From Alphaproteobacteria bacterium (GTDB taxonomy: Bacteria > Pseudomonadota > Alphaproteobacteria > GCA-2731375), in assembly GCA_965225945.1 (NCBI GenBank), contig CBDDBZ010000032.1, positions 160,001 through 224,000 of the forward strand: a stretch of DNA of 64,000 nucleotides, in the 5' to 3' direction. The notes beneath the pieces were generated by a model. It made no database searches, was not told the origin of the DNA, and worked only from the letters and a program-made list of their open reading frames with translations. Position 1 is the stretch's first letter; every line of letters begins with the position of its first letter. The translations under genes were made by a program, and so were the position numbers. This document shows, piece after piece, positions 7,738 to 40,813 of the stretch.

Positions 7738-9197
7738 GGCGCCCATCCGCCGTGCTCGCGCGCCCGCGCCTGCGCCTGCGCCTCAGCGGCATCGTCGAAA
7801 GGCCGGATCTCCTCGCCGATGTACTGACCCTGCTCGTGCCCCTTGCCGGCGATCACCAACACATCGCCGATGTCCAAAGTCTCGATCGCGACGCGGATGG
7901 CCTCGCCCCGCTCACCGATCTCGCGCGCCTGCGCACAGCCGCGCATCACTTCGGCGCGGATCGCCGCCGGTTCCTCGGTCCGAGGGTTGTCATCGGTGAC
8001 GATGACGCGATCCGCCATTCGCTCGGCGATCCGCCCCATCTCGACGCGCTTGCCCGGGTCCCGGTCGCCGCCACAACCGAAGACGACGACGAGCCGCCCC
8101 CGGGTCGCCGGACGCAGGGCCCTGAGCACGTTCTCCAGCGCCCCCGGCTTGTGGGCGTAGTCGACATAGATCCGAGCGCCGTTGGCCAGTTCTGCGACTC
8201 GTTGCAGGCGGCCCGGAACGCCGTCGAGCGCCGCCAACCCCGCCACCGTCGCCCGGGCGTCCCCGCCGCAGGCCAGCACCAGGCCGACCGCGGCGATCGC
8301 GTTCATCGCCTGAAAGCGTCCCGGAAGCGGTAGGCATACTTCGCTTTCGCGTCCCAGGACCTCGAGCGTCAAGCGCTGCGCCGAGCCCTCCGTGTCGATG
8401 TCGACGAGGCGCAGGTCGGCCTCGCCGGCGCCATAGGTCATGATATCGAGCCCGCGAGCCCGGCAGGCGCCGATCACCCTGCCCGCGACCGTGCAGTCGG
8501 CGTTGATCACGGCCATGCCGCCCGCCGCCATCACGCAATCGAAGAGCCGCAGCTTGGCGGCGAGATAGGCCTCGGTGTCGGCGTGGTAGTCCAGGTGATC
8601 GCGGCTGAAGTTGGTGAAGGCGCCGGCGGCGATGGCCAAACCGTCGAGGCGGCGCTGGTCGAGACCGTGGCTCGAGGCCTCGATCGCCACGCATTCGACG
8701 CCGCCCGCCGCCAGGCGGTCGAGCTCGCGATGCAGCGTCACCGGATCGGGCGTGGTGTGGGCGATCGAGGCCACCTCGTCGTCGGCCAGGACACCGAGGG
8801 TGCCGATGCTGGCGGCGGGCCGCCCGGCCCCTCGCCACAATTGGCGGGTGAAGTCAACGACCGAGGTCTTGCCGCTGGTGCCGGTGACGGCGACCACGGT
8901 CTCGGGCGCGCGACCGTGAAAGCGGGCGGCCATCAGCGCCAGCTGGCGGCGCGGATCCTCCGCCAGCACCACCGGGATCTCGATGTCACCGCGCACGAGC
9001 GTGCTCGGCGCCAGCAGGGCGGCGGCGCCCCGGCATAGCGCGTCGTCGATGAAGCAAGCGCCGTCGGTTCGCGAGCCCGGCAGTGCCGCGAACAGGTAAC
9101 CCGGCGCCACTTCCCGGCTGTCGGCCGTCAGGCCGGTGATCTCCGCGTCGCCGCCGAGCCTGATCGCCTCGTCTCGGATCAGCTCAAAAAGACGCAA
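7734..9197 (-). CDS. murE: UDP-MurNAc-dipeptide--meso-DAP ligase
   Basis: VTGTSGKTS, EASSHGL, DHLDYH, DYAHKP, DNPR (DAP-type), AGKGHE; probable TTG start. Confidence 0.95.
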   Translation of the reverse strand: MRLFELIRDEAIRLGGDAEITGLTADSREVAPGYLFAALPGSRTDGACFIDDALCRGAAALLAPSTLVRGDIEIPVVLAEDPRRQLALMAARFHGRAPETVVAVTGTSGKTSVVDFTRQLWRGAGRPAASIGTLGVLADDEVASIAHTTPDPVTLHRELDRLAAGGVECVAIEASSHGLDQRRLDGLAIAAGAFTNFSRDHLDYHADTEAYLAAKLRLFDCVMAAGGMAVINADCTVAGRVIGACRARGLDIMTYGAGEADLRLVDIDTEGSAQRLTLEVLGRESEVCLPLPGRFQAMNAIAAVGLVLACGGDARATVAGLAALDGVPGRLQRVAELANGARIYVDYAHKPGALENVLRALRPATRGRLVVVFGCGGDRDPGKRVEMGRIAERMADRVIVTDDNPRTEEPAAIRAEVMRGCAQAREIGERGEAIRVAIETLDIGDVLVIAGKGHEQGQYIGEEIRPFDDAAEAQAQARAREHGGWAP

Positions 9198-10923
9198 GAC
9201 GAGTCTTCCCCTTCTCGGGAGCGAGGCGCATCGCCCGTTCGATCTCGACGTCGGTCTCGTCGAGGATCGGCAGGCCGACGATCGGGGCGATACGGGCAAT
9301 CACGCGGCCAGCGGTCGGCGCCGCCGTCCAGCCGGCCGTCGCGAAGCCGTGGGTCGCCACGTTGCCCTGCGGCTCGTCCAGCAGCACGAAGACGACGTAA
9401 CGCGGCGCCGTCATCGGGAAGACGGCGACGAAGGAGGACAGAATCGTGCGACGATCGTAACCACGCGGGCCGATTTTGTCCGCCGTGCCGGTCTTGCCGC
9501 CAACGAGGTAGCCCGGAATGCTCGCCTGCTTGCCGGTGCCTTCGCGCACCACCAGACGCAGCAGGCGACGCATGGTATCCGAGGTGCGCCGGGAGATCAC
9601 CCGGGTGCCCTCGGGCGCTGGCCCGTCGCGCCGGATCAAGGTGGCTGGGTGCAGGATGCCGCCGTTGATCACCGCCGCGGTCGCGCTTGCCACCTGCATC
9701 GGGCTTACCGCCAGGCCATGACCGAAGGCGACCGTCATGGTGTTGATCTCGCGCCAGGGACTGGGGCTCAGCGGGGCGCCCACCTCCGGCAACTCGATCG
9801 CCGAGGGTCGGAGCATGCCGAGGCGGTCCATGAAGGCGCGCTGGCGCTCGGTGCCGACGTCAAGAGCGAGCTTGGCCGAGCCGATGTTGGAGGAATACTT
9901 GAAAATCTCCGGCACGCTGAGCCAGCGCCGCTTCGGGTGGTCGTCGCGAATGGTGAAACGGGCGACGCGGATCGGCCGGCTGGCGTCGTAACCGTCTCGG
10001 AGCGTCACCGTGCCACTCTCCAGGCCCATCGCGGTGTTGAACACCTTGAACACCGAGCCGAGCTCGTAGACGCCGAGCGTCACGCGATTGAAGCGGGCGA
10101 ACTCACTCGCCTCGCCCGGGCGGTTCGGATCGAAGTCCGGCAGGGAAGAGAGGGCCAGGACCTCGCCGTTGCGGGCATCGAGGATGATGCCGGCGGCGCC
10201 CACGGCGCGATAGCGCCGCATCGCCGCCCGCAATTCGTCGCGCAGCGCGTGCTGCAGGCGGGAATCGATGGTGAGGCGGAACGCCCTGTCCCGCCCCTCG
10301 GTCAGCGCCTCGTCGCGCGACTTCTCGATCCCGGCAATGCCGCTGTTGTCGATGTCGACAAATCCGGTGACATGGCTCGCCAGCGATCCCAGCGGATAGA
10401 TCCGCCGTTGCTCGTTTTGAAAGGCGAGGCCGGGAATGCCGAGGGCATTGACGTCGTGCAACTGGCGCGGCGTCAGGTTGCGCTTGACCCAGACGAAGGC
10501 GCGGTCGGATGCGAGCTTGGCTTCGACCGCGGCCGGATCGAGATCCGGCAGCACCCGGACCAGCGCGGCGGCAGCCGCCGCCGGATCGTCGATCACCCGG
10601 GCGTCCGCATGCAACGAGGCCGAGGCGAGATTGGTCGCCAGCAGGACACCGTTGCGGTCGACGATGTCGGCCCGCTCGCTCGGCTTCGGCGCGGCCCGGC
10701 CGGCCGTCACCGCCGGCTCCGCGGCCTGGCGCAGCAACATCACGTGAACCAAGCGGCCACCGATGGTCGCGAAAGCGAGCGCGAACAGCAACGACATGAT
10801 CTGCAGCCGGCCCCGCCCGGTCAGCAACCAGCGGGTATCGGCCGCCTGGATGCCGGTGCCGGCCGGCGGGCTCTCCCGTCGATCGAATAGCGGCAAGCTC
10901 CGGTCGTTGGCGCGATGTCTCAT
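9184..10923 (-). CDS. ftsI: Penicillin-binding protein 3
   Basis: RADIVDRNG, GSVFK (SxxK), SSN, KTGT; ATG at 10923 overlaps ftsL stop. Confidence 0.95.
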   Translation of the reverse strand: MRHRANDRSLPLFDRRESPPAGTGIQAADTRWLLTGRGRLQIMSLLFALAFATIGGRLVHVMLLRQAAEPAVTAGRAAPKPSERADIVDRNGVLLATNLASASLHADARVIDDPAAAAAALVRVLPDLDPAAVEAKLASDRAFVWVKRNLTPRQLHDVNALGIPGLAFQNEQRRIYPLGSLASHVTGFVDIDNSGIAGIEKSRDEALTEGRDRAFRLTIDSRLQHALRDELRAAMRRYRAVGAAGIILDARNGEVLALSSLPDFDPNRPGEASEFARFNRVTLGVYELGSVFKVFNTAMGLESGTVTLRDGYDASRPIRVARFTIRDDHPKRRWLSVPEIFKYSSNIGSAKLALDVGTERQRAFMDRLGMLRPSAIELPEVGAPLSPSPWREINTMTVAFGHGLAVSPMQVASATAAVINGGILHPATLIRRDGPAPEGTRVISRRTSDTMRRLLRLVVREGTGKQASIPGYLVGGKTGTADKIGPRGYDRRTILSSFVAVFPMTAPRYVVFVLLDEPQGNVATHGFATAGWTAAPTAGRVIARIAPIVGLPILDETDVEIERAMRLAPEKGKTRLASF

Positions 10924-11249
10924 CGTCTCGTCCCCGCCTCGCCGCGCCGTGCCGCCACCGGATCCGGACGGGTCGGAAGGCCCTCGAACCCGACGATCTG
11001 ATCGGGCGAAACCGGCGCCAAGGCGATCGCCTCGACATGTTGGGCCGCCAGCGCCTGCAACCGTTCCGGCCGATTCAGATAGCTCCACTCGGCCTCGAGA
11101 ACCTGGATCGCTTGGCGATCCGCCAGCAGCTCCGCCTCGAGCCCAGCAAGCCGGCGCTCGAGTTGTTGCACCTGGTTCTCGATCAGGTAGAGCGCGAGCG
11201 CCAGCGTGAGCGCGAGAATCGACGAGACGACGGTGAGGAGGCGTCTCAT
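10920..11249 (-). CDS. ftsL: Cell division protein FtsL
   Basis: One TM helix, coiled coil, LEAEWSYLNRPERL; between rsmH and ftsI. Confidence 0.88.
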   Translation of the reverse strand: MRRLLTVVSSILALTLALALYLIENQVQQLERRLAGLEAELLADRQAIQVLEAEWSYLNRPERLQALAAQHVEAIALAPVSPDQIVGFEGLPTRPDPVAARRGEAGTRR

Positions 11250-11334
11250 GCCGCGTTCTCGATCAGGTAGAGCGCGAGCGCCAGCGTGAGCGCGAGAATC
11301 GACGAGACGACGGTGAGGAGGCGTCTCATGCCGC
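11175..11334. repeat. Perfect 80-bp tandem duplication covering the ftsL 5' end
   Basis: 11175-11254 identical to 11255-11334. Confidence 0.95.
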
Positions 11335-12276
11335 CATCTCCCGGGCCGGCGCGTCGGTGCGGACGGCGGCCCTGAGGCGGGCCGAGCGGGCCCTGGGGTT
11401 GGACGTGACTTCGGCCTCGCTCGGCCGGCGGGCACCGCGGAAGAGCGGACGGAAGGTGGCGGGGGGGGCCTCGGGCTCCGGCGGTAGGTGGCGAGAACGG
11501 CCCCGCCCGGCGCCCGTGCGATCCTCCAGGAAACGCTTGACTCGCCGATCTTCCAGCGAATGGAAGGCGATCACCGCCAACCGACCTTCGGCCGAGAGCA
11601 ACCGTTCGGCCGCGTCGAGGCCGCGCTCGAGCTCGCCAAGCTCGTCGTTGACGTGCATGCGAAGTGCCTGGAAGGCCCGAGTCGCGGGATGGCGCGGGCC
11701 GCCGCCGCCGACGGCGGCGGCGATGATCTGTGCCAGCTCGCCGGTGCGTCGGATGGGCTGGCGGGCTCGCGCGCGGAGGATCGCCTTGGCGACGGCGCGG
11801 GCGCGGCGCTCCTCGCCGAGGTCACGGATCACCCGGGAGATCTCGGCCTCGCTCGCCTCGTTGACGAAATCGGCGGCGTTCGGCCCATCCTCGCCCATGC
11901 GCATGTCGAGCGGGCCGTCCTCGCGGAAGGAGAAGCCTCGGGCCGCGTCGTCGATCTGGGGGCTGGAGACACCGAGGTCGAGGGCGACGCCGTCGACCGT
12001 CTCGACACCGACCTCCGCCAACAGATGCTCCATGTCGCCGAAGCGCCCGCGAAGCATGATCAGTCGGCCTGGAAACCGGCGGCGCAACGCCTCGCCAGCG
12101 GCGATCGCTTCGGCGTCGCGATCGATCGCGAAGACGAGGCAGTCCGCCGCCTTCAGGATCGCCCGGCTGTGGCCACCACGGCCGAACGTGGCGTCCACCA
12201 AGCGTCCGCCGGCGCGCGGGGACAACGCCTCCAGCATCTCTCGCACCATCACCGGCGCATGCGCGGCCGCGCTCAT
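11326..12276 (-). CDS. rsmH: 16S rRNA m4C1402 methyltransferase
   Basis: HAPVM, DATFGRGGHS, DLGVSSPQID, FHSLEDRRVK, NPRARSARLR. Confidence 0.97.
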   Translation of the reverse strand: MSAAAHAPVMVREMLEALSPRAGGRLVDATFGRGGHSRAILKAADCLVFAIDRDAEAIAAGEALRRRFPGRLIMLRGRFGDMEHLLAEVGVETVDGVALDLGVSSPQIDDAARGFSFREDGPLDMRMGEDGPNAADFVNEASEAEISRVIRDLGEERRARAVAKAILRARARQPIRRTGELAQIIAAAVGGGGPRHPATRAFQALRMHVNDELGELERGLDAAERLLSAEGRLAVIAFHSLEDRRVKRFLEDRTGAGRGRSRHLPPEPEAPPATFRPLFRGARRPSEAEVTSNPRARSARLRAAVRTDAPAREMAA

Positions 12277-37112: not shown

Positions 37113-37871
37113 ATGAAAATCGGCGACAACAGACCACTCGGCAGTCCCAGCGCGGCCCGCACGGGCGCGCGGGACGCCGCGCGCGCTTACGCCGGCACGG
37201 AAGCCTCCGCGCCGCGCGCGACGGAAGACAGCACCACCATTCTCGGCATTCCCGAGTCGGAACTGACGCCCAAGGTGCGCGAGGCGATCATGAAATTGAT
37301 GCACGAAGTGGAGACACTTCGTCGCGAGCTCGATCGCACCCATGAGCGCCTGAATCACATGGAGAAGCTGGCCGATCTGGACCCCCTGGCACCGATCGCC
37401 AATCGGCGCGCCTTCGTGCGCGAACTCACCCGCGCGATTTCCTTCGCCGAACGCAATCAGAGCCCGCCGAGCTTGGTTTATTTCGACGTCAACGGCTTCA
37501 AGGCGATCAACGACAATTACGGCCACGCGGCGGGCGACAAGGCGTTATTGCACGTGGCGAGCGTCCTGCTGGAGCGGGTGCGCGAATCGGACGTCGTCGG
37601 TCGCTTGGGCGGCGACGAGTTCGGTGTCATCCTGGCCCAGACGAGTGAGACGCGCGCGCGCGAAAAAGCCCAGACGAGTGAGACGCGCGCGCGCGAAAAA
37701 GCGATGCAACTGGCCGAGGCGATCGAAAACGAACCGGTGGCGTGGGAAGGCACCGATCTGCTGATAAAGGTCGCCTACGGGATCACCACCTTTCAGGGCG
37801 GAGAAGATGCCCTGGCGGCGGCCGACCGGGAGATGTACGAGCGCAAGGCCAGCATGAAATCCGAGGGCTGA
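37113..37871 (+). CDS. Diguanylate cyclase
   Basis: [25 protein letters not shown]-site, GGDEF. Confidence 0.92.
37635..37700. repeat. Perfect in-frame 33-bp tandem duplication ([11 protein letters not shown] x2)
   Basis: 37635-37667 = 37668-37700. Confidence 0.95.
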
Positions 37872-37959
37872 ATTCTCGGCCCGGCCCGGCGTGAGCCCGA
37901 GTCATGGCGACGGCCCCGGCGGGGGACGTCCGGACCGCTCCGCTCATTGGTGCACCCTT

Positions 37960-38235
37960 TGATCGGTGAGCGTTGCGAATCGGCGTACCGTGCACCATCC
38001 GAGCGTCCGCCGCGACGGCCTGCTCCGCTTGCCGCTCGCCGGCCAGGGGGAGACCCGCCGCGCGGCGGTGCACCACCCGAGCGTCCGCCGCGACGGCCTG
38101 CTCCGCTTGCCGCTCGCCGGCCAGGGGGAGACCCGCCGCGCGGCGGCCGGGAGCGTTGAACGGACCACAGGGTGTTGCGCCAAGGCCTCTCGGCCAGAGC
38201 GCCGGTCAATGAGCGATCCGCGCAGGCTCCCAGCT
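37960..38235 (+). ncRNA. Bridge RNA with two target-binding loops and one donor-binding loop (ends approximate)
   Basis: LTG GCTCCGCT 38022/38100, RTG AGGGGGAG 38045/38123, LDG CACAGGGTGT 38166, RDG CAATGAG 38207; closing stems CCGCCGCG/CGCGGCGG and GGGAGC/GCTCCC. Confidence 0.85.
37990..38145. repeat. 78-bp tandem repeat x2, one mismatch
   Basis: Units start at 37990 and 38068; CACCATCC versus CACCACCC. Confidence 0.95.
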
Positions 38236-38270
38236 CGGGACAACTTATCGCAATCGAGGAGGTAGGGAAC

Positions 38271-39485
38271 ATGGGATATTGTGTGGGAATAGATTGGGGT
38301 GGCCTCGCACATGCCGTTTGCGTCGTCGACGACGCAAACGGCATGTGCGTCGAAAATTTCGAGGTGGCCCACGGCGCCGCCGGGATAGCCGAGCTGCTCG
38401 CCCGCCTGGCCCGCATCGCGCCGCCGGAGGAAATGCCGATCGCCATCGAGCGACCTTCCGGCCTGCTGGTCGAGAGCTTGATCGAGGCCGGCCATCCGGT
38501 GATCCCGATCCACCCCAACGTCGTCAAGGCCTGCCGCCCGCGCTACCGCGCCGCCGGCGGCAAAAGCGATCCGGGCGATGCCTACATGATCGCCGATATC
38601 CTGCGAACCGATGGCCATCGCTTCCGCGCCCTCACACCGTGCTCCGACGAGATCGAGGCCTTGAGCGCTCTGGTCCGCACCCGCGACGACCTGGTCGCCA
38701 AGCGCGTCGCCATCGCCAATCAGCTGCGCGGCCTGCTCGACGGCTTCTGGCCCGGCGCCGGCGCCGTCTTCGCCGATATCGACAGCAAGATCGCGCTCGC
38801 CTTCCTCGAACGCTATCCCACCCCCGACAGCGCCCGGAGCCTCGGCGAGAAACGCCTGGCCGCTTTCCTCGCCCGAAACCACTACAGCGGCGGCCGGAGC
38901 CCCCGCCAGCTGCTCGATCGCCTCGGGGCCGCCGCCCGCGGACGCGCCGGCCCCGCCGAAGTCGAGATGAAAGGCGAACTGGTGCGTGCCCTCGTCGCCG
39001 TCCTCCGCCCGCTGGTCGAGCGCCTCGGTGAACTCAGCCGACGCCTCGAGCGAGAGGTCGCCGCGCTTCCCGATGGACGGATCATCATGTCCTTTCCCCG
39101 CGCCGGCCGTGTCTGCGCGGCTCAGATCCTGGCCGAACTCGGTGACGTCAGGGAACGATACCTCTCCGCCGATCACCTCGCCGCCGAGGCCGGCGCCTGC
39201 CCCGTCACTCACGCGTCCGGAAAATCCAGGGGCGTCAAATTCCGATGGGCCTGCAATCATCGCCTGAGGCGCGCGATCACGACCTTCGCCGATAACTCCA
39301 GGCACGAATCCCAGTGGGCACAAGACATCTATCTCGCCGCCAAGAAGCGCGGATGTCGCCACGCCCATGCCATCAGAATCCTCGCCCGCGCGTGGATCAG
39401 GGTCATCTGGAGAGCATGGACCGACGGAAAACCCTACGACCCGCAAAAACATCGAGCCGCAATGCGCGCCACCGAGATAGGTTGA
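38271..39485 (+). CDS. IS110 DEDD recombinase (404 aa)
   Basis: GIDWG, IAIE, KSDPGDA (DEDD), AGACPVTHASG serine; RBS GAGGAGG. Confidence 0.95.
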   Translation: MGYCVGIDWGGLAHAVCVVDDANGMCVENFEVAHGAAGIAELLARLARIAPPEEMPIAIERPSGLLVESLIEAGHPVIPIHPNVVKACRPRYRAAGGKSDPGDAYMIADILRTDGHRFRALTPCSDEIEALSALVRTRDDLVAKRVAIANQLRGLLDGFWPGAGAVFADIDSKIALAFLERYPTPDSARSLGEKRLAAFLARNHYSGGRSPRQLLDRLGAAARGRAGPAEVEMKGELVRALVAVLRPLVERLGELSRRLEREVAALPDGRIIMSFPRAGRVCAAQILAELGDVRERYLSADHLAAEAGACPVTHASGKSRGVKFRWACNHRLRRAITTFADNSRHESQWAQDIYLAAKKRGCRHAHAIRILARAWIRVIWRAWTDGKPYDPQKHRAAMRATEIG

Positions 39486-39495
39486 CACAGGGTGT

Positions 39496-39570
39496 CTCCC
39501 CCTCCGGGCCGCCCGGAAAAGCTCCCCTCAATGGGTGGCCCGGAGGGGTCCCGGAGGGGGAGCGGAGCGG
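39496..39570. repeat. Remainder of REP-like palindrome interrupted by the IS110
   Basis: 39550-39570 is the exact reverse complement of the reconstructed empty site CCGCTCCGCTCCCCCTCCGGG. Confidence 0.85.
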
Positions 39571-39590
39571 CCGAGACTTATGTCCATCGC

Positions 39591-40813
39591 CACAGTACAC
39601 GACTCGTTCATGCTGGCTTTGGCCTGGGCACCTGGACTGGTGGTTTTCCGGGGACGAGGAAACGAATCAGCTCAATGGCTTGACGCCTGTCGATAGGATT
39701 GACGAGCTGTCGCCTTATCCACTCGAAACCGTATCGGAAGATGGATTTTGCCATCCTTTTGTGGGTTTTGAGGCGGATCGGCTCGGCCTCGTGGAGCCAA
39801 TCGCCGACTTTGTGCGCCCAGCAGAAGGTGATGGAAAGGACGGCGGTGAGCTTGGAGATGCGCTCCGGGTCGGTCATGTGGGTGTCTTCGAGGTTGAAGC
39901 CACGGGTTTTCAAGGCGGCGAAGAGGGTCTCGATTTGCCAGCGCTGGGCGTAGATGGCCAAGGCCTCCTCGGGCGCGTCGTTGGTCACGACGATCAACAG
40001 TTCGCCGGTCTTGAGATGGAGCGCGGCGACGAAGACGGGCCTGGCCTTGGGTTTTCTGGCCTCCGAGAGGCGCCTGGCGTTGGAGAGGATGCGGCTTTCC
40101 CCGGGTTTGAGGTCGCGAAACAGCTCCCTCGCCTTGACCATGCGACCACGCGTGTTGGCGATCTTGATGTTGGATCGGATGCGGATGTGAAAGGGGATGG
40201 CCTTTTCCTGCAACCATGCCAGCCAGGCGTCGCCGATGAATTCCCGGTCGGCCAGGAGGCTGGCGATCTTGTCGACCCCGAAGAGCCGGAGGACGTGTTC
40301 GAGGATCGCGATCCGCTCCTTGGTATTGGAATTGCCCGCCTTGTCGAGCACCCGCCAGCACACGGGAATGGCGATGGCGCGGTTGACGATGCCGATCATC
40401 AAGATGTTGACGTCGCGGCGACCCAGCCGCCAGTTGGTCCGGTCCATGGTCAGCCGCCACGGCCCCGCCTGGAGCCCCATCATCGCGACCAGGAACTCGG
40501 CGAGGCGATCGTAATCGAAATCGACTTGCTCGAAAAACCGTTGCAGGCGCCGATAGTTGGAGCTGGATCGCGCGCGCCCCGGAAAGTGGCAGGCCAAGTG
40601 AGAGAGGTTCACCGTCCGGGCGACGAACACGCCGAAGACCAAGACGCAAAGGCTCTCCAGACGGCTCTTGCGAAAGGCGAAGCCGCATCGTAGCGTCTCA
40701 CGCAGGGCGTTGATCGGGTTGTCTCGCATGATTTCCCTCTTGACTCGTCGTGGAGTGAATCGGGAATCCTACAACCTTTTCAACGTCCTACGTAAATGCC
40801 GTCGTGTACCATG
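39591..40813 (-). mobile_element. IS4-family element with 9-bp target duplication
   Basis: IRs CACAGTACACGAC / GTCGTGTACCATG; GTCCATCGC at 39582-39590 and 40814-40822. Confidence 0.92.
39608..40729 (-). CDS. IS4-family DDE transposase
   Basis: MDRTNW, ADREF, YAQRWQIETLFAALK (YREK motif). Confidence 0.93.
   Translation of the reverse strand: MRDNPINALRETLRCGFAFRKSRLESLCVLVFGVFVARTVNLSHLACHFPGRARSSSNYRRLQRFFEQVDFDYDRLAEFLVAMMGLQAGPWRLTMDRTNWRLGRRDVNILMIGIVNRAIAIPVCWRVLDKAGNSNTKERIAILEHVLRLFGVDKIASLLADREFIGDAWLAWLQEKAIPFHIRIRSNIKIANTRGRMVKARELFRDLKPGESRILSNARRLSEARKPKARPVFVAALHLKTGELLIVVTNDAPEEALAIYAQRWQIETLFAALKTRGFNLEDTHMTDPERISKLTAVLSITFCWAHKVGDWLHEAEPIRLKTHKRMAKSIFRYGFEWIRRQLVNPIDRRQAIELIRFLVPGKPPVQVPRPKPA

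Follow-up and report, generated by a model that had tools for sequence, protein, structure and literature searches.

Does the IS110-group element at 37945 to 39497 of this window (the whole stretch of 64,000 nucleotides analyzed here) carry a bridge RNA with two target-binding loops (TBLs), and, if so, is the second loop a natural design, a chance duplication, or an error of assembly? An initial annotation, made from the letters of the sequence, had proposed a natural two-loop bridge RNA. All of the motifs that it named were found where it had placed them. Protein domains, covariation, and guide matches also agreed with its description: an IS110-group element whose 5′ bridge RNA follows the LTG/RTG/LDG/RDG layout. 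The features of the locus are as follows.

37935 to 37944, plus strand: left target half (…GCTCCG) and CT core, in the left arm of a palindrome split by the element; from the sequence.
37945 to 39497, plus strand: IS110-group element, with CT on both sides and guides matching its ends and flanks.
37990 to 38067, plus strand: repeat unit 1, TBL copy 1 (model match, 38007 to 38068; LTG, 38022 to 38029; RTG, 38045 to 38052).
38068 to 38145, plus strand: repeat unit 2, TBL copy 2, in the canonical place beside the donor-binding loop (DBL) (model match, 38085 to 38146; LTG, 38100 to 38107; RTG, 38123 to 38130).
38076 to 38082, plus strand: 5′ strand of the outer helix, CCCGAGC, enclosing TBL and DBL; from the consensus fold and pair probabilities.
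38149 to 38231, plus strand: DBL, with basal helix GGGAGC/GCTCCC (probability, 0.96), LDG, and RDG.
38233 to 38239, plus strand: 3′ strand of the outer helix, GCTCGGG; from the consensus fold and pair probabilities.
38271 to 39485, plus strand: recombinase coding sequence, 404 amino acids; from Pfam.
39482 to 39487, plus strand: TTGACA in the right end, a possible −35 element of a promoter that would be complete solely at the circle junction; from the sequence and the IS621 precedent.
39486 to 39503, plus strand: right end (LD, CACAGGGTGT), CT core (39496 to 39497), and right target half CCCCCT; from the sequence.
39550 to 39570, minus strand: second palindrome arm, with the genome's sole intact 14-nt target (39555 to 39568, minus strand); from a genome search.

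The guides of the bridge RNA account for both ends of the element and for both flanks. The LTG GCTCCGCT, present in both repeat units, is identical to the left flank plus core at 37937 to 37944 (8/8 positions), and the RTG AGGGGGAG, likewise in both units, is the reverse complement of CTCCCCCT, the core plus right flank, at 39496 to 39503 (8/8). The LDG CACAGGGTGT at 38166 to 38175 repeats the element right end at 39486 to 39495 (10/10), while the RDG CAATGAG at 38207 to 38213 is the reverse complement of the left end CTCATTG at 37943 to 37949 (7/7). The 2-nt CT core could be assigned to either end, so that 37943 to 39495 is an equally valid span. The target of the element, GCTCCG-CT-CCCCCT, is fully readable. 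It lies in a palindrome with 21-nt arms, one of which is split by the element. The intact 21-mer and 14-mer are found at one further genomic site only, the other palindrome arm (minus strand), 58 nt from the element. A REP-type target was considered and rejected because that single further copy of the 14-mer falls within the same palindrome. The palindrome is outside the neighboring multicopy IS, which starts at about 39590. A search of the element's own genome returned one full copy and one truncated, degenerate copy on contig C5.

The predicted recombinase matched DEDD_Tnp_IS110 (PF01548) over residues 5 to 161 (E = 9.3e-33; profile positions 1 to 155 of 155) and Transposase_20 (PF02371) over residues 270 to 354 (E = 5.5e-15), at nearly full profile length. 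Counted by hand, the key residues are D8, E60, D100, D103, and S316-G317, with D8 and E60 assigned from motifs only. KSDPGD of the recombinase aligns with KTDAVD of ISCro4 (D-x-x-D), and ASGKS aligns with ESGSS of ISCro4 (Ser-Gly); for the serine's role, we follow the literature. The full-length Pfam matches and these alignments bear out the earlier view that the DEDD residues and the C-terminal serine look intact. Judged by its sequence, 37945 to 39497 is an apparently intact IS110-group element encoding a bridge recombinase.

The element shares its overall plan with IS621 and ISCro4 (IS622) (PMC11208160, PMC11208158). In all of them, a noncoding RNA lies 5′ of a recombinase with DEDD and Tnp domains, and the core is CT. 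A short hairpin separates LTG from RTG in the TBL, and LDG and RDG lie in the DBL; LTG is in the sense orientation of left flank and core, and RTG is the reverse complement of core and right flank. In contrast with those systems, the recombinase here is only distantly similar to that of ISCro4 (E = 3.8e-5, Tnp domain only), an outer helix around both loops is a feature of the present clade, the target is a genome-unique palindrome rather than a multicopy REP, and the TBL module is doubled. The TTGACA of the right end, at the place of the junction-promoter −35 of IS621, recurs in the right ends of relatives L010, L021, L023, and L017. Across the circle junction, the hexamers at spacers of 16 to 18 are TGCACC, GCACCC, and CACCCT. 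A scan of 37850 to 38300 gave no promoter-like and no terminator-like sites, and we therefore propose no promoter for the integrated state.

Relatives of the element allowed the RNA structure to be assessed by covariation. The closest found are on an Acetobacteraceae MAG contig (L010; 71% at the amino acid level), on metagenome contigs L021 (71%) and L023 (62%), and on Mesorhizobium plasmids pMLa and MesoLj131b2 (65%). The closest relatives have the same bridge RNA framework, right end GTTGACACAGGGTGT, and CT core, and their guides match their own flanks. Unlike the present element, each has one TBL and about 5 nt of linker between TBL and DBL, and L010 has about 200 nt more between stop codon and right end. 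Of the 34 pairs in the consensus fold of 18 bridge RNAs, 27 showed compensatory changes; the covariation check proposed in the annotation thus favored the bridge RNA structure. The TBL closing helix CCGCCGCG/CGCGGCGG and the GCCG/CGGC hairpin are present here, and both covary in relatives. TBL helices were 89.2% paired, compared with 66.4% in shuffles (0 of 500 shuffles reached the observed value) and 38 to 53% in slid controls, and 13 of 16 pairs had changed on both sides. The outer helix also showed compensatory changes (columns 21 to 27 paired with 192 to 198 of the consensus fold), and the unit 1 counterpart of its 5′ strand is TCCGAGC at 37998 to 38004. Since single-sequence fold z-scores were weak (two-unit RNA, −1.49; one-unit RNA, −1.40), the case for structure is built on covariation and not on folding energy. 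A search of Rfam 15 gave no match to a bridge RNA family; the sole match was a chance snoRNA (E = 0.59) outside the element.

Guide matching extended to the relatives. In 7 of 12 elements, the LTG agreed with the element's own left flank at 7/8 or more positions, a level reached by 5 of 132 non-self pairs, and the RTG reached at least 7/8 positions against its own flank in 3 of 4 relatives. The RDG covaries with the left end (CAATGAG/CTCATTG here, CAGTGAG/CTCACTG in L010 and L021), and the RDG motif found the left end in 14 of 17 sequences (this element and 13 of 16 relatives). A search of the degenerate C5 copy with the same motif gave no left-end match. When the 5′ region was searched as DNA against a sample of 60 relatives, only 32- to 44-nt matches were returned (E of about 1e-4, in 3 genomes), and these were treated as chance. 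The recombinase protein was not found in a sample of 32 other genomes of the same order (E ≤ 1e-40) or in a sample of 400 other genomes of the same class (E ≤ 1e-60).

The doubling itself is clear in the assembly. Tandem Repeats Finder reported a repeat at 37990 to 38146 with a period of 78, 2.0 copies, and 98% matches. As described in the annotation, the two units differ at a single base (T 37998 versus C 38076), outside the guides. A TBL covariance model gave two matches in this element, at 61 bits each, which confirmed that the 78-bp unit holds one whole target loop. The model was trained on the relatives and unit 2; since unit 1, absent from the training set, scored 61 bits (E = 3.6e-13), its TBL is not a chance match. 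Both loops carry identical LTG and RTG, and the RNA therefore has no second specificity. The suggestion that one loop is free to acquire a new specificity, as a route to guide arrays, was speculative and found no support here. Compared with the one-unit form, the locus does not show a clean 78-bp duplication; a 76-nt copy takes the place of a single C, which makes the locus 75 nt longer. This replacement leaves 2 nt of linker between TBL and DBL, where the one-unit form has 5 nt and 17 other aligned sequences have about 5 nt. The new unit junction, between GCGCGGCGGT and GCACC, shows GT microhomology only and no CT core.

Everything compared with this locus had one loop. The C5 copy from the same genome has one unit, and for 19 other elements the covariance model found a single TBL apiece, with no second TBL in any of the 19 at E ≤ 0.1. 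The tandem repeat was present in 1 of 20 upstream regions, that of this element. The comparison with other copies and homologues, proposed in the annotation as a check, thus went against a two-loop design. Four public runs were also compared, three of them DNA-like and from three studies and one a metatranscriptome. In all four, a contig joined 38069 to 38146 via C, which is the one-unit form, and the two-unit form was seen in none of the four sets of Logan contigs (not raw reads), which can drop variants and which come from runs not known to be the source sample. The one-unit contigs read C at 37998 and were otherwise letter identical over 37940 to 38335, so they are not the C5 copy. The metatranscriptome contig joined the one-unit form to the same insertion site. 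It spans 37867 to 38244, with no contig over the coding sequence, and is only a hint of RNA; contigs of an RNA run cannot show RNA ends or level. Stretches without cover in that run, and contig depth, which is too coarse a gauge of unit copy number, were left out of the evidence. The best run in the index contained 0.67 of the sampled words, roughly the value expected if only the two-unit-specific words were missing.

The annotation had named reads with only one 78-bp unit as the result that would count against it. That result was nearly obtained: all four runs had the one-unit form, but as contigs of other samples and not as source reads. A natural two-loop bridge RNA was not found beyond the one assembly, and the two-loop design as a natural conserved architecture is not supported.

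These comparisons also bear on whether the second loop functions. A functional two-loop RNA would have both TBLs transcribed and each loading a recombinase dimer, with more target capture and one loop free to drift. In its favor, the covariance model recognizes a complete TBL in each unit, and a second target, intact, is close by in the other palindrome arm. In a synaptic complex of IS621, TBL and DBL are described as contributed by two distinct RNA molecules, and recombination in vitro is reported with the two loops supplied as individual RNAs (PMC11208158); the mechanism should therefore tolerate an extra TBL. About 45% of the predicted ensemble of the two-unit RNA has two separate TBLs and an intact DBL, but about 51% is cross-paired between units. 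The identical guides, the shortened linker, and the one-unit form in the C5 copy, in 19/19 elements, and in 4/4 runs speak against function of the second loop, as does the report that IS621 does not support target-target recombination (PMC11208158). There is only one full genomic copy and thus no sign of raised activity. We consider a functional two-loop RNA very unlikely. An extension of the idea, that the two-unit allele is real and makes one transcript in which both loops load dimers, as the first step towards a multi-guide RNA caught in the act, seems to us a long shot; if true, it would offer a natural template for bridge RNAs addressing two targets per transcript.

The main rival to a real duplication is an assembly or consensus artefact, in which the real locus is one unit and the extra 76 nt, a 3-nt loss, and T 37998 are long-read assembly errors. 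The two-unit junction occurred in no independent data (0/4 runs), and the best index share of words was the 0.67 given above. Run X6 was letter identical to the assembly in the flank (37700 to 37973) and in the element body (38416 to 38700) and yet had one unit. All differences from the run contigs fall inside the repeat. More than 60 copies of a 1.22-kb IS, nearly identical to one another, are resolved within contigs of the assembly; this suggests that long reads were used. Three differences (the duplication, the 3-nt loss, and C>T) lie within 160 nt, and the remaining ~300 nt compared are identical. Such clustering would be odd for independent neutral events and fits one complex event or an assembly error equally well. 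Counting against an artefact, assemblers seldom create a tandem copy of 76 nt whose junction is unique, and k-mer methods take junction words from reads; moreover, the compared runs are not known to be the source sample.

Similar duplications elsewhere in the genome bear on the same question. With a period of 30 to 337 and at least 95% identity, the 6.27-Mb assembly holds 55 two-copy tandem duplications, three of them within the window. An 800-kb sample of a same-genus genome had 2, versus 7.0 expected, so that the density in the source assembly is about 3.5-fold higher. For 9 of the 32 duplications whose period is not divisible by 3, collapse to one copy extends an open frame by 100 amino acids or more, in an open-span comparison that is noisy at 66% G+C. 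The raised density of exact two-copy duplications, some breaking long open frames, could indicate an artefact-prone assembly. Against this, the same-genus genome likewise has such duplications, which argues that they are a real feature of these genomes. Pfam searches covered open reading frames next to two of three duplications on other contigs, and three such frames beside the 80-bp duplication in the window; they gave no clearly essential broken gene. The matches beside the duplications were a PG_binding frame adjoining a TerB frame, and two frames had no family. The 80-bp duplication is flanked by mraW and ftsI, with a spanning frame without a family, and the single frame scanned at the third of the other-contig loci (L035) had no family either. 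Taking both sides together, we regard an artefact as unlikely, though a serious candidate.

The element's own recombinase could also have duplicated the TBL, by half-match recombination resolved in place. This mechanism is proposed in a preprint for tandem noncoding repeat units beside IS110 transposases (10.64898/2026.08.14.744561), which describes the surveyed unit boundaries as enriched for left-donor-only matches; half-match recombination is reported as demonstrated for IS621. The repeat here (78 bp, 98%, 2.0 copies) falls within the definition in the preprint's text, namely, two or more adjacent same-strand copies of a unit ≥50 bp long, with ≥95% identity, and, like the surveyed repeats, it is noncoding and adjoins the transposase gene. 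Its boundary is unlike theirs. The junction between GCGCGGCGGT and GCACC has no CT core and, by eye, matches the left donor CACAGGGTGT at 4/10 positions. In addition, like duplications occur chromosome-wide, away from any IS110 element. Duplication by the element's own recombinase thus appears very unlikely. The text of the preprint does not state that the repeated unit is a whole guide loop. Our literature search found no description of a two-target-loop bridge RNA in the texts covered; supplements and figures, for example, those of 10.64898/2026.08.14.744561 and 10.64898/2026.10.21.760802, could hold cases.

We favor, with modest confidence, an intact IS110 bridge element in which the TBL doubling is a private, recent, and generic duplication that left the guides unchanged. 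The bridge RNA of the clade consists of one TBL and one DBL, both enclosed by the outer helix. Each half of the target would be recognized through pairing with a TBL guide and each end of the element through pairing with a DBL guide, and the recombinase, by analogy with IS621, would exchange strands at the CT core. In the present allele, a 76-nt copy of the TBL module stands in place of one C, probably through an ordinary microhomology- or slippage-type tandem duplication, among the 55 of this kind counted in the assembly. The extra loop may be neutral or, because of the predicted fold ambiguity and the shortened TBL-DBL linker, mildly harmful.

The annotation had also compared the locus with TIGR-Tas arrays, and a link between IS110 and TIGR-Tas is already in print (Faure 2025, PMC12045711). 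TIGR-Tas systems use guide-RNA units with two strand-specific spacers. The RNA-binding Nop domain of Tas is structurally related to the IS110 C-terminal domain, and bridge RNA is described as resembling a fusion of two tigRNAs, although bridge RNAs are stated to be a single two-stem unit and not arrays (PMC12045711). In contrast with TIGR-Tas, the locus here has two identical copies, no variable spacers, and no Tas protein. The hallmarks of a TIGR-like guide array were not found; the two units are identical, and their neighbor is a recombinase with DEDD and Tnp domains.

On present evidence, the doubled loop is a one-off allele with identical guides, uncorroborated by other data sets. For these reasons, and because noncoding tandem repeats next to IS110 transposases have already been surveyed in print, it should not be called a natural multiplexed guide array. 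The element is a previously uncharacterized member of the bridge-recombinase family. Because it is apparently intact, has a readable target, and belongs to a clade whose RNA has an extra enclosing helix, it is a reasonable candidate for recombination assays. If the doubled loop is real, it would provide a natural test of TBL modularity, that is, of whether a second loop helps, hurts, or does nothing, and of whether a duplicated guide module can begin to diverge.

The initial annotation had described an IS110-group insertion sequence whose bridge RNA carries two target-binding loops (TBLs, with guides LTG and RTG) and one donor-binding loop (DBL, with guides LDG and RDG). The element occupies 37945-39497, or 37943-39495, since the 2-nt CT core is ambiguous. 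All motifs of the annotation were found in place when the sequence was read directly; they are listed with a neighboring insertion sequence.

Guide motifs of the bridge RNA and the adjacent insertion sequence
38022 and 38100: LTG, GCTCCGCT, identical to left flank plus core (37937-37944)
38045 and 38123: RTG, AGGGGGAG, reverse complement of core plus right flank (39496-39503)
38166: LDG, CACAGGGTGT, identical to the element right end (39486-39495)
38207: RDG, CAATGAG, reverse complement of the left end (37943-37949)
about 39590-40813: DDE_Tnp_1 insertion sequence, 1.22 kb, present more than 60 times in the assembly in nearly identical form

Tandem Repeats Finder reported a repeat at 37990-38146 (period 78, 2.0 copies, 98% matches), and the only mismatch between unit 1 (37990-38067) and unit 2 (38068-38145) was T at 37998 versus C at 38076. 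The element interrupts one of the two 21-nt arms of a palindrome. An intact 14-nt target remains on the minus strand of the uninterrupted arm (39550-39570), the only other copy in the 6.27-Mb assembly. This palindrome does not belong to the neighboring 1.22-kb element, with which the genome is heavily loaded.

The recombinase open reading frame (38271-39485, 404 aa) matched the Pfam families DEDD_Tnp_IS110 (E 9.3e-33, full profile) and Transposase_20 (E 5.5e-15). Its only match among solved structures was the ISCro4 transposase (E 3.8e-5), whose DEDD-motif D-x-x-D aligned with KSDPGD and whose Ser-Gly loop aligned with ASGKS; PMC11208158 describes the roles of these residues in IS621 catalysis. 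Domain matches and motif alignment agree that the DEDD residues and C-terminal serine are apparently intact, as annotated, and the protein appears from its sequence to be an intact, distant IS110-family member. A perfect 44-nt palindrome (38306-38349, codons about 12 to 26) lies within the coding sequence, both here on contig C32 and in a second copy on contig C5 of the same genome. The relative L010, on an Acetobacteraceae MAG contig, is not palindromic at this position, and its protein diverges directly after VVDD. The palindrome suggests an inverted-duplication (template-switch) event, and the Pfam match spans the whole domain despite it.

Since the 5′ noncoding region had no Rfam match, it was compared with relatives from a species-per-genome collection (4 loci), plasmids (16 records, 6 fetched), and metagenome contigs (12 loci). 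In an alignment of 18 upstream regions (213 columns), the consensus fold had 34 pairs, 27 of which were kept through changes on both sides. The consensus TBL comprises two helices, the basal one followed by an invariant bulged A, then an internal loop that contains LTG and RTG, and a short hairpin at the distal end; the linker to the DBL, which has the same design, is short, and an outer helix (CCCGAGC, 38076-38082, with GCTCGGG, 38233-38239) encloses both loops. For a hand-written TBL structure, 89.2% of cells were paired, compared with 66.4% in shuffles (0 of 500 as high) and 38 to 53% when partners were slid by 1 to 3 columns; 13 of 16 pairs changed on both sides. RDG covaried with the left end (CAATGAG/CTCATTG in the window, CAGTGAG/CTCACTG in L010 and the metagenomic L021). 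In 7 of 12 elements, at least 7 of the 8 LTG positions agreed with the element's own left flank and core, compared with 5 of 132 non-self pairings; the misses were L011 (3/8), L013, L020, and L021 (5/8 each), and L019 (6/8). RTG agreed equally well with its own right flank (at least 7 of 8 positions) in three of the four elements with a right flank available. Because the fold covaries and the guides behave as guides, the annotated bridge RNA with its LTG/RTG/LDG/RDG layout is well supported.

To count loops, a TBL covariance model (62 positions, 16 pairs) was searched against the window and 23 loci (121,516 bases). Both units matched (38007-38068 and 38085-38146, 61 bits each), bearing out the annotation of the 78-bp repeat unit as one whole target loop. 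Exactly one match was found in each of 19 other elements (48 to 77 bits), none in the four loci lacking the 5′ region, and no further match better than E 0.2 anywhere in this search. Eighteen of the matched sequences had been used in training, so that their matches follow by construction; unit 1, L016, and L027 lay outside training. An upstream tandem repeat occurred in 1 of 20 regions, the window's only; the 21-nt repeat of L011 falls outside that element. The degenerate C5 copy (locus L002, G000:C5:16242-19622, minus strand, about 1935-1500) carries a single 78-bp unit; RTG and LDG each contain one change, and ATG is replaced by ACG. After about 500 nt this copy is cut off by another mobile element, whose transposase is presumably IS1595-like. 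The poor match of its left flank (…ACCCCGTT) to LTG may reflect later decay, or an insertion made off target or at a half-match.

Public sequencing runs gave the same count. In an index of such runs, the best contained 0.67 of the sampled words of 37880-38300. Four runs, all in the form of Logan contigs, were compared with the window: the metatranscriptome X7 and, from three studies, X1, X4, and X6. In all four, 38069 was joined to 38146 by a single C, giving a one-unit form with a junction, GGTCGCCGGGAG, common to the run contigs, the C5 copy, and relatives; position 37998 was C. These contigs were otherwise identical to the window over 37940-38335 and therefore do not derive from the C5 copy, whose own junctions formed separate loose ends in the contigs of X1, X4, and X6. 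Both in the flank (37700-37973) and over 38416-38700, X6 was letter-identical to the window. X1 and X4 differed by A>C at 38664 and by a 9-nt insertion, TCGGTGAAC, behind 37805, an in-frame strain difference in the 3′ part of a GGDEF gene in which X6 is as the window. Since a single X7 contig starts in the chromosomal flank (37867) and continues across the one-unit form as far as 38244, that form occupies the same insertion site. The unit 1-to-unit 2 junction was in no contig of the four runs, although contigs can drop variants and the runs may come from samples other than the assembly source. The X7 contig spans the complete one-unit bridge RNA as well as the left end, stopping 5 nt past the outer helix, and no X7 contig covers the recombinase coding sequence; these contigs, from one study, weakly hint at a higher RNA abundance for the bridge RNA region than for the coding sequence.

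Relative to the one-unit form, a 76-nt copy replaces one C in the window (equivalently, a 78-bp duplication plus a 3-nt loss), with C>T at 37998. This replacement leaves a linker of 2 nt between the second TBL and the DBL, versus about 5 nt in 17 other aligned sequences. Duplication by the element's own recombinase is very unlikely: its signature was not found at the junction, which shares only GT, lacks a CT core, and agrees with the left donor in 4 of 10 positions. The assembly (G000) holds 55 two-copy tandem duplications (period 30 to 337, at least 95% identity, most 100%), three of them in the window (11175-11334, 37635-37702, and the bridge RNA repeat). Thirty-two are not a multiple of 3, and for 9, removing one copy gave an open frame at least 100 aa longer; at 66% G+C, this measure is noisy. 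In 800 kb sampled from a same-genus genome there were 2, versus 7.0 expected at the G000 density, which is about 3.5 times that of the sample; some G000 duplications break long open frames. Their presence in both, at lower number in the sample, indicates a real feature of these genomes that is over-represented in G000, through either unusually frequent duplication in the strain or an artefact-prone assembly. An assembly artefact, toward which the G000 excess and the one-unit runs would point and against which the related genome's duplications would speak, is a possible but rather unlikely source of the doubled loop. We consider it probable, with some reserve, that the second loop arose by a recent tandem duplication of a generic kind and is neutral or slightly harmful.

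Two further duplications were observed in the window. A perfect 33-bp one (37635-37702, 2.1 copies), about 290 bp from the bridge RNA duplication, repeats 11 residues in frame within a GGDEF diguanylate cyclase gene (37113-37871). A perfect 80-bp one (11175-11334) lies between mraW/rsmH-like (11326-12276, minus) and ftsI-like penicillin-binding protein (9184-11088, minus) genes, at what we take to be the expected ftsL position; a 171-aa open reading frame there had no Pfam match.

The doubled loop is private to one assembly and is contradicted as an architecture by all else examined. Of the proposed natural two-loop bridge RNA, the observation is confirmed and the bridge-RNA annotation is supported; the architecture is not supported, with one TBL in the C5 copy, in 19 of 19 elements, and in 4 of 4 runs. 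Nor is there a second specificity, as the guides of both units are identical. No two-target-loop bridge RNA was found in the literature text searched. The accessible text of a survey of bridge RNA variants describes longer guides, not extra loops, and that of a preprint on tandem units beside IS110 transposases (bioRxiv 10.64898/2026.08.14.744561) does not state a whole guide loop as the repeat unit. The suggested resemblance to TIGR-Tas arrays holds for the published relation of the IS110 RNA-binding domain to Tas proteins; bridge RNAs are there a single two-stem unit, not arrays.

By analogy, the element would work like IS621 and ISCro4, in line with every membership test run. The IS621 bridge RNA has a promoter whose −35 box is located in the right end and which is therefore complete only in the circle; PMC13626964 reports weak expression from integrated copies. 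The window element has TTGACA at 39482-39487, kept in four relatives; hexamers at spacers of 16 to 18 across the circle junction were poor −10 boxes (best, CACCCT), and no promoter-like site was found in the integrated state. In the predicted ensemble of the two-unit RNA (37965-38250), about 45% had two separate TBLs with a canonical unit 2-DBL module and about 51% paired the unit 1 5′ strand with the unit 2 3′ strand, the DBL being intact in both (0.96). These figures reflect thermodynamics only, and cotranscriptional folding may favor two separate TBLs. A functional two-loop RNA, compatible with such folding, is nonetheless very unlikely given the single loop elsewhere. According to PMC11208158, an IS621 synaptic complex takes its TBL from one RNA molecule and its DBL from another, TBL and DBL supplied as separate RNAs support recombination in vitro, and donor-donor recombination occurs whereas target-target recombination does not. 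From these findings, an additional TBL whose guides are unchanged could bind both a recombinase dimer and the same target, and it would bring neither added specificity nor target-target exchange.
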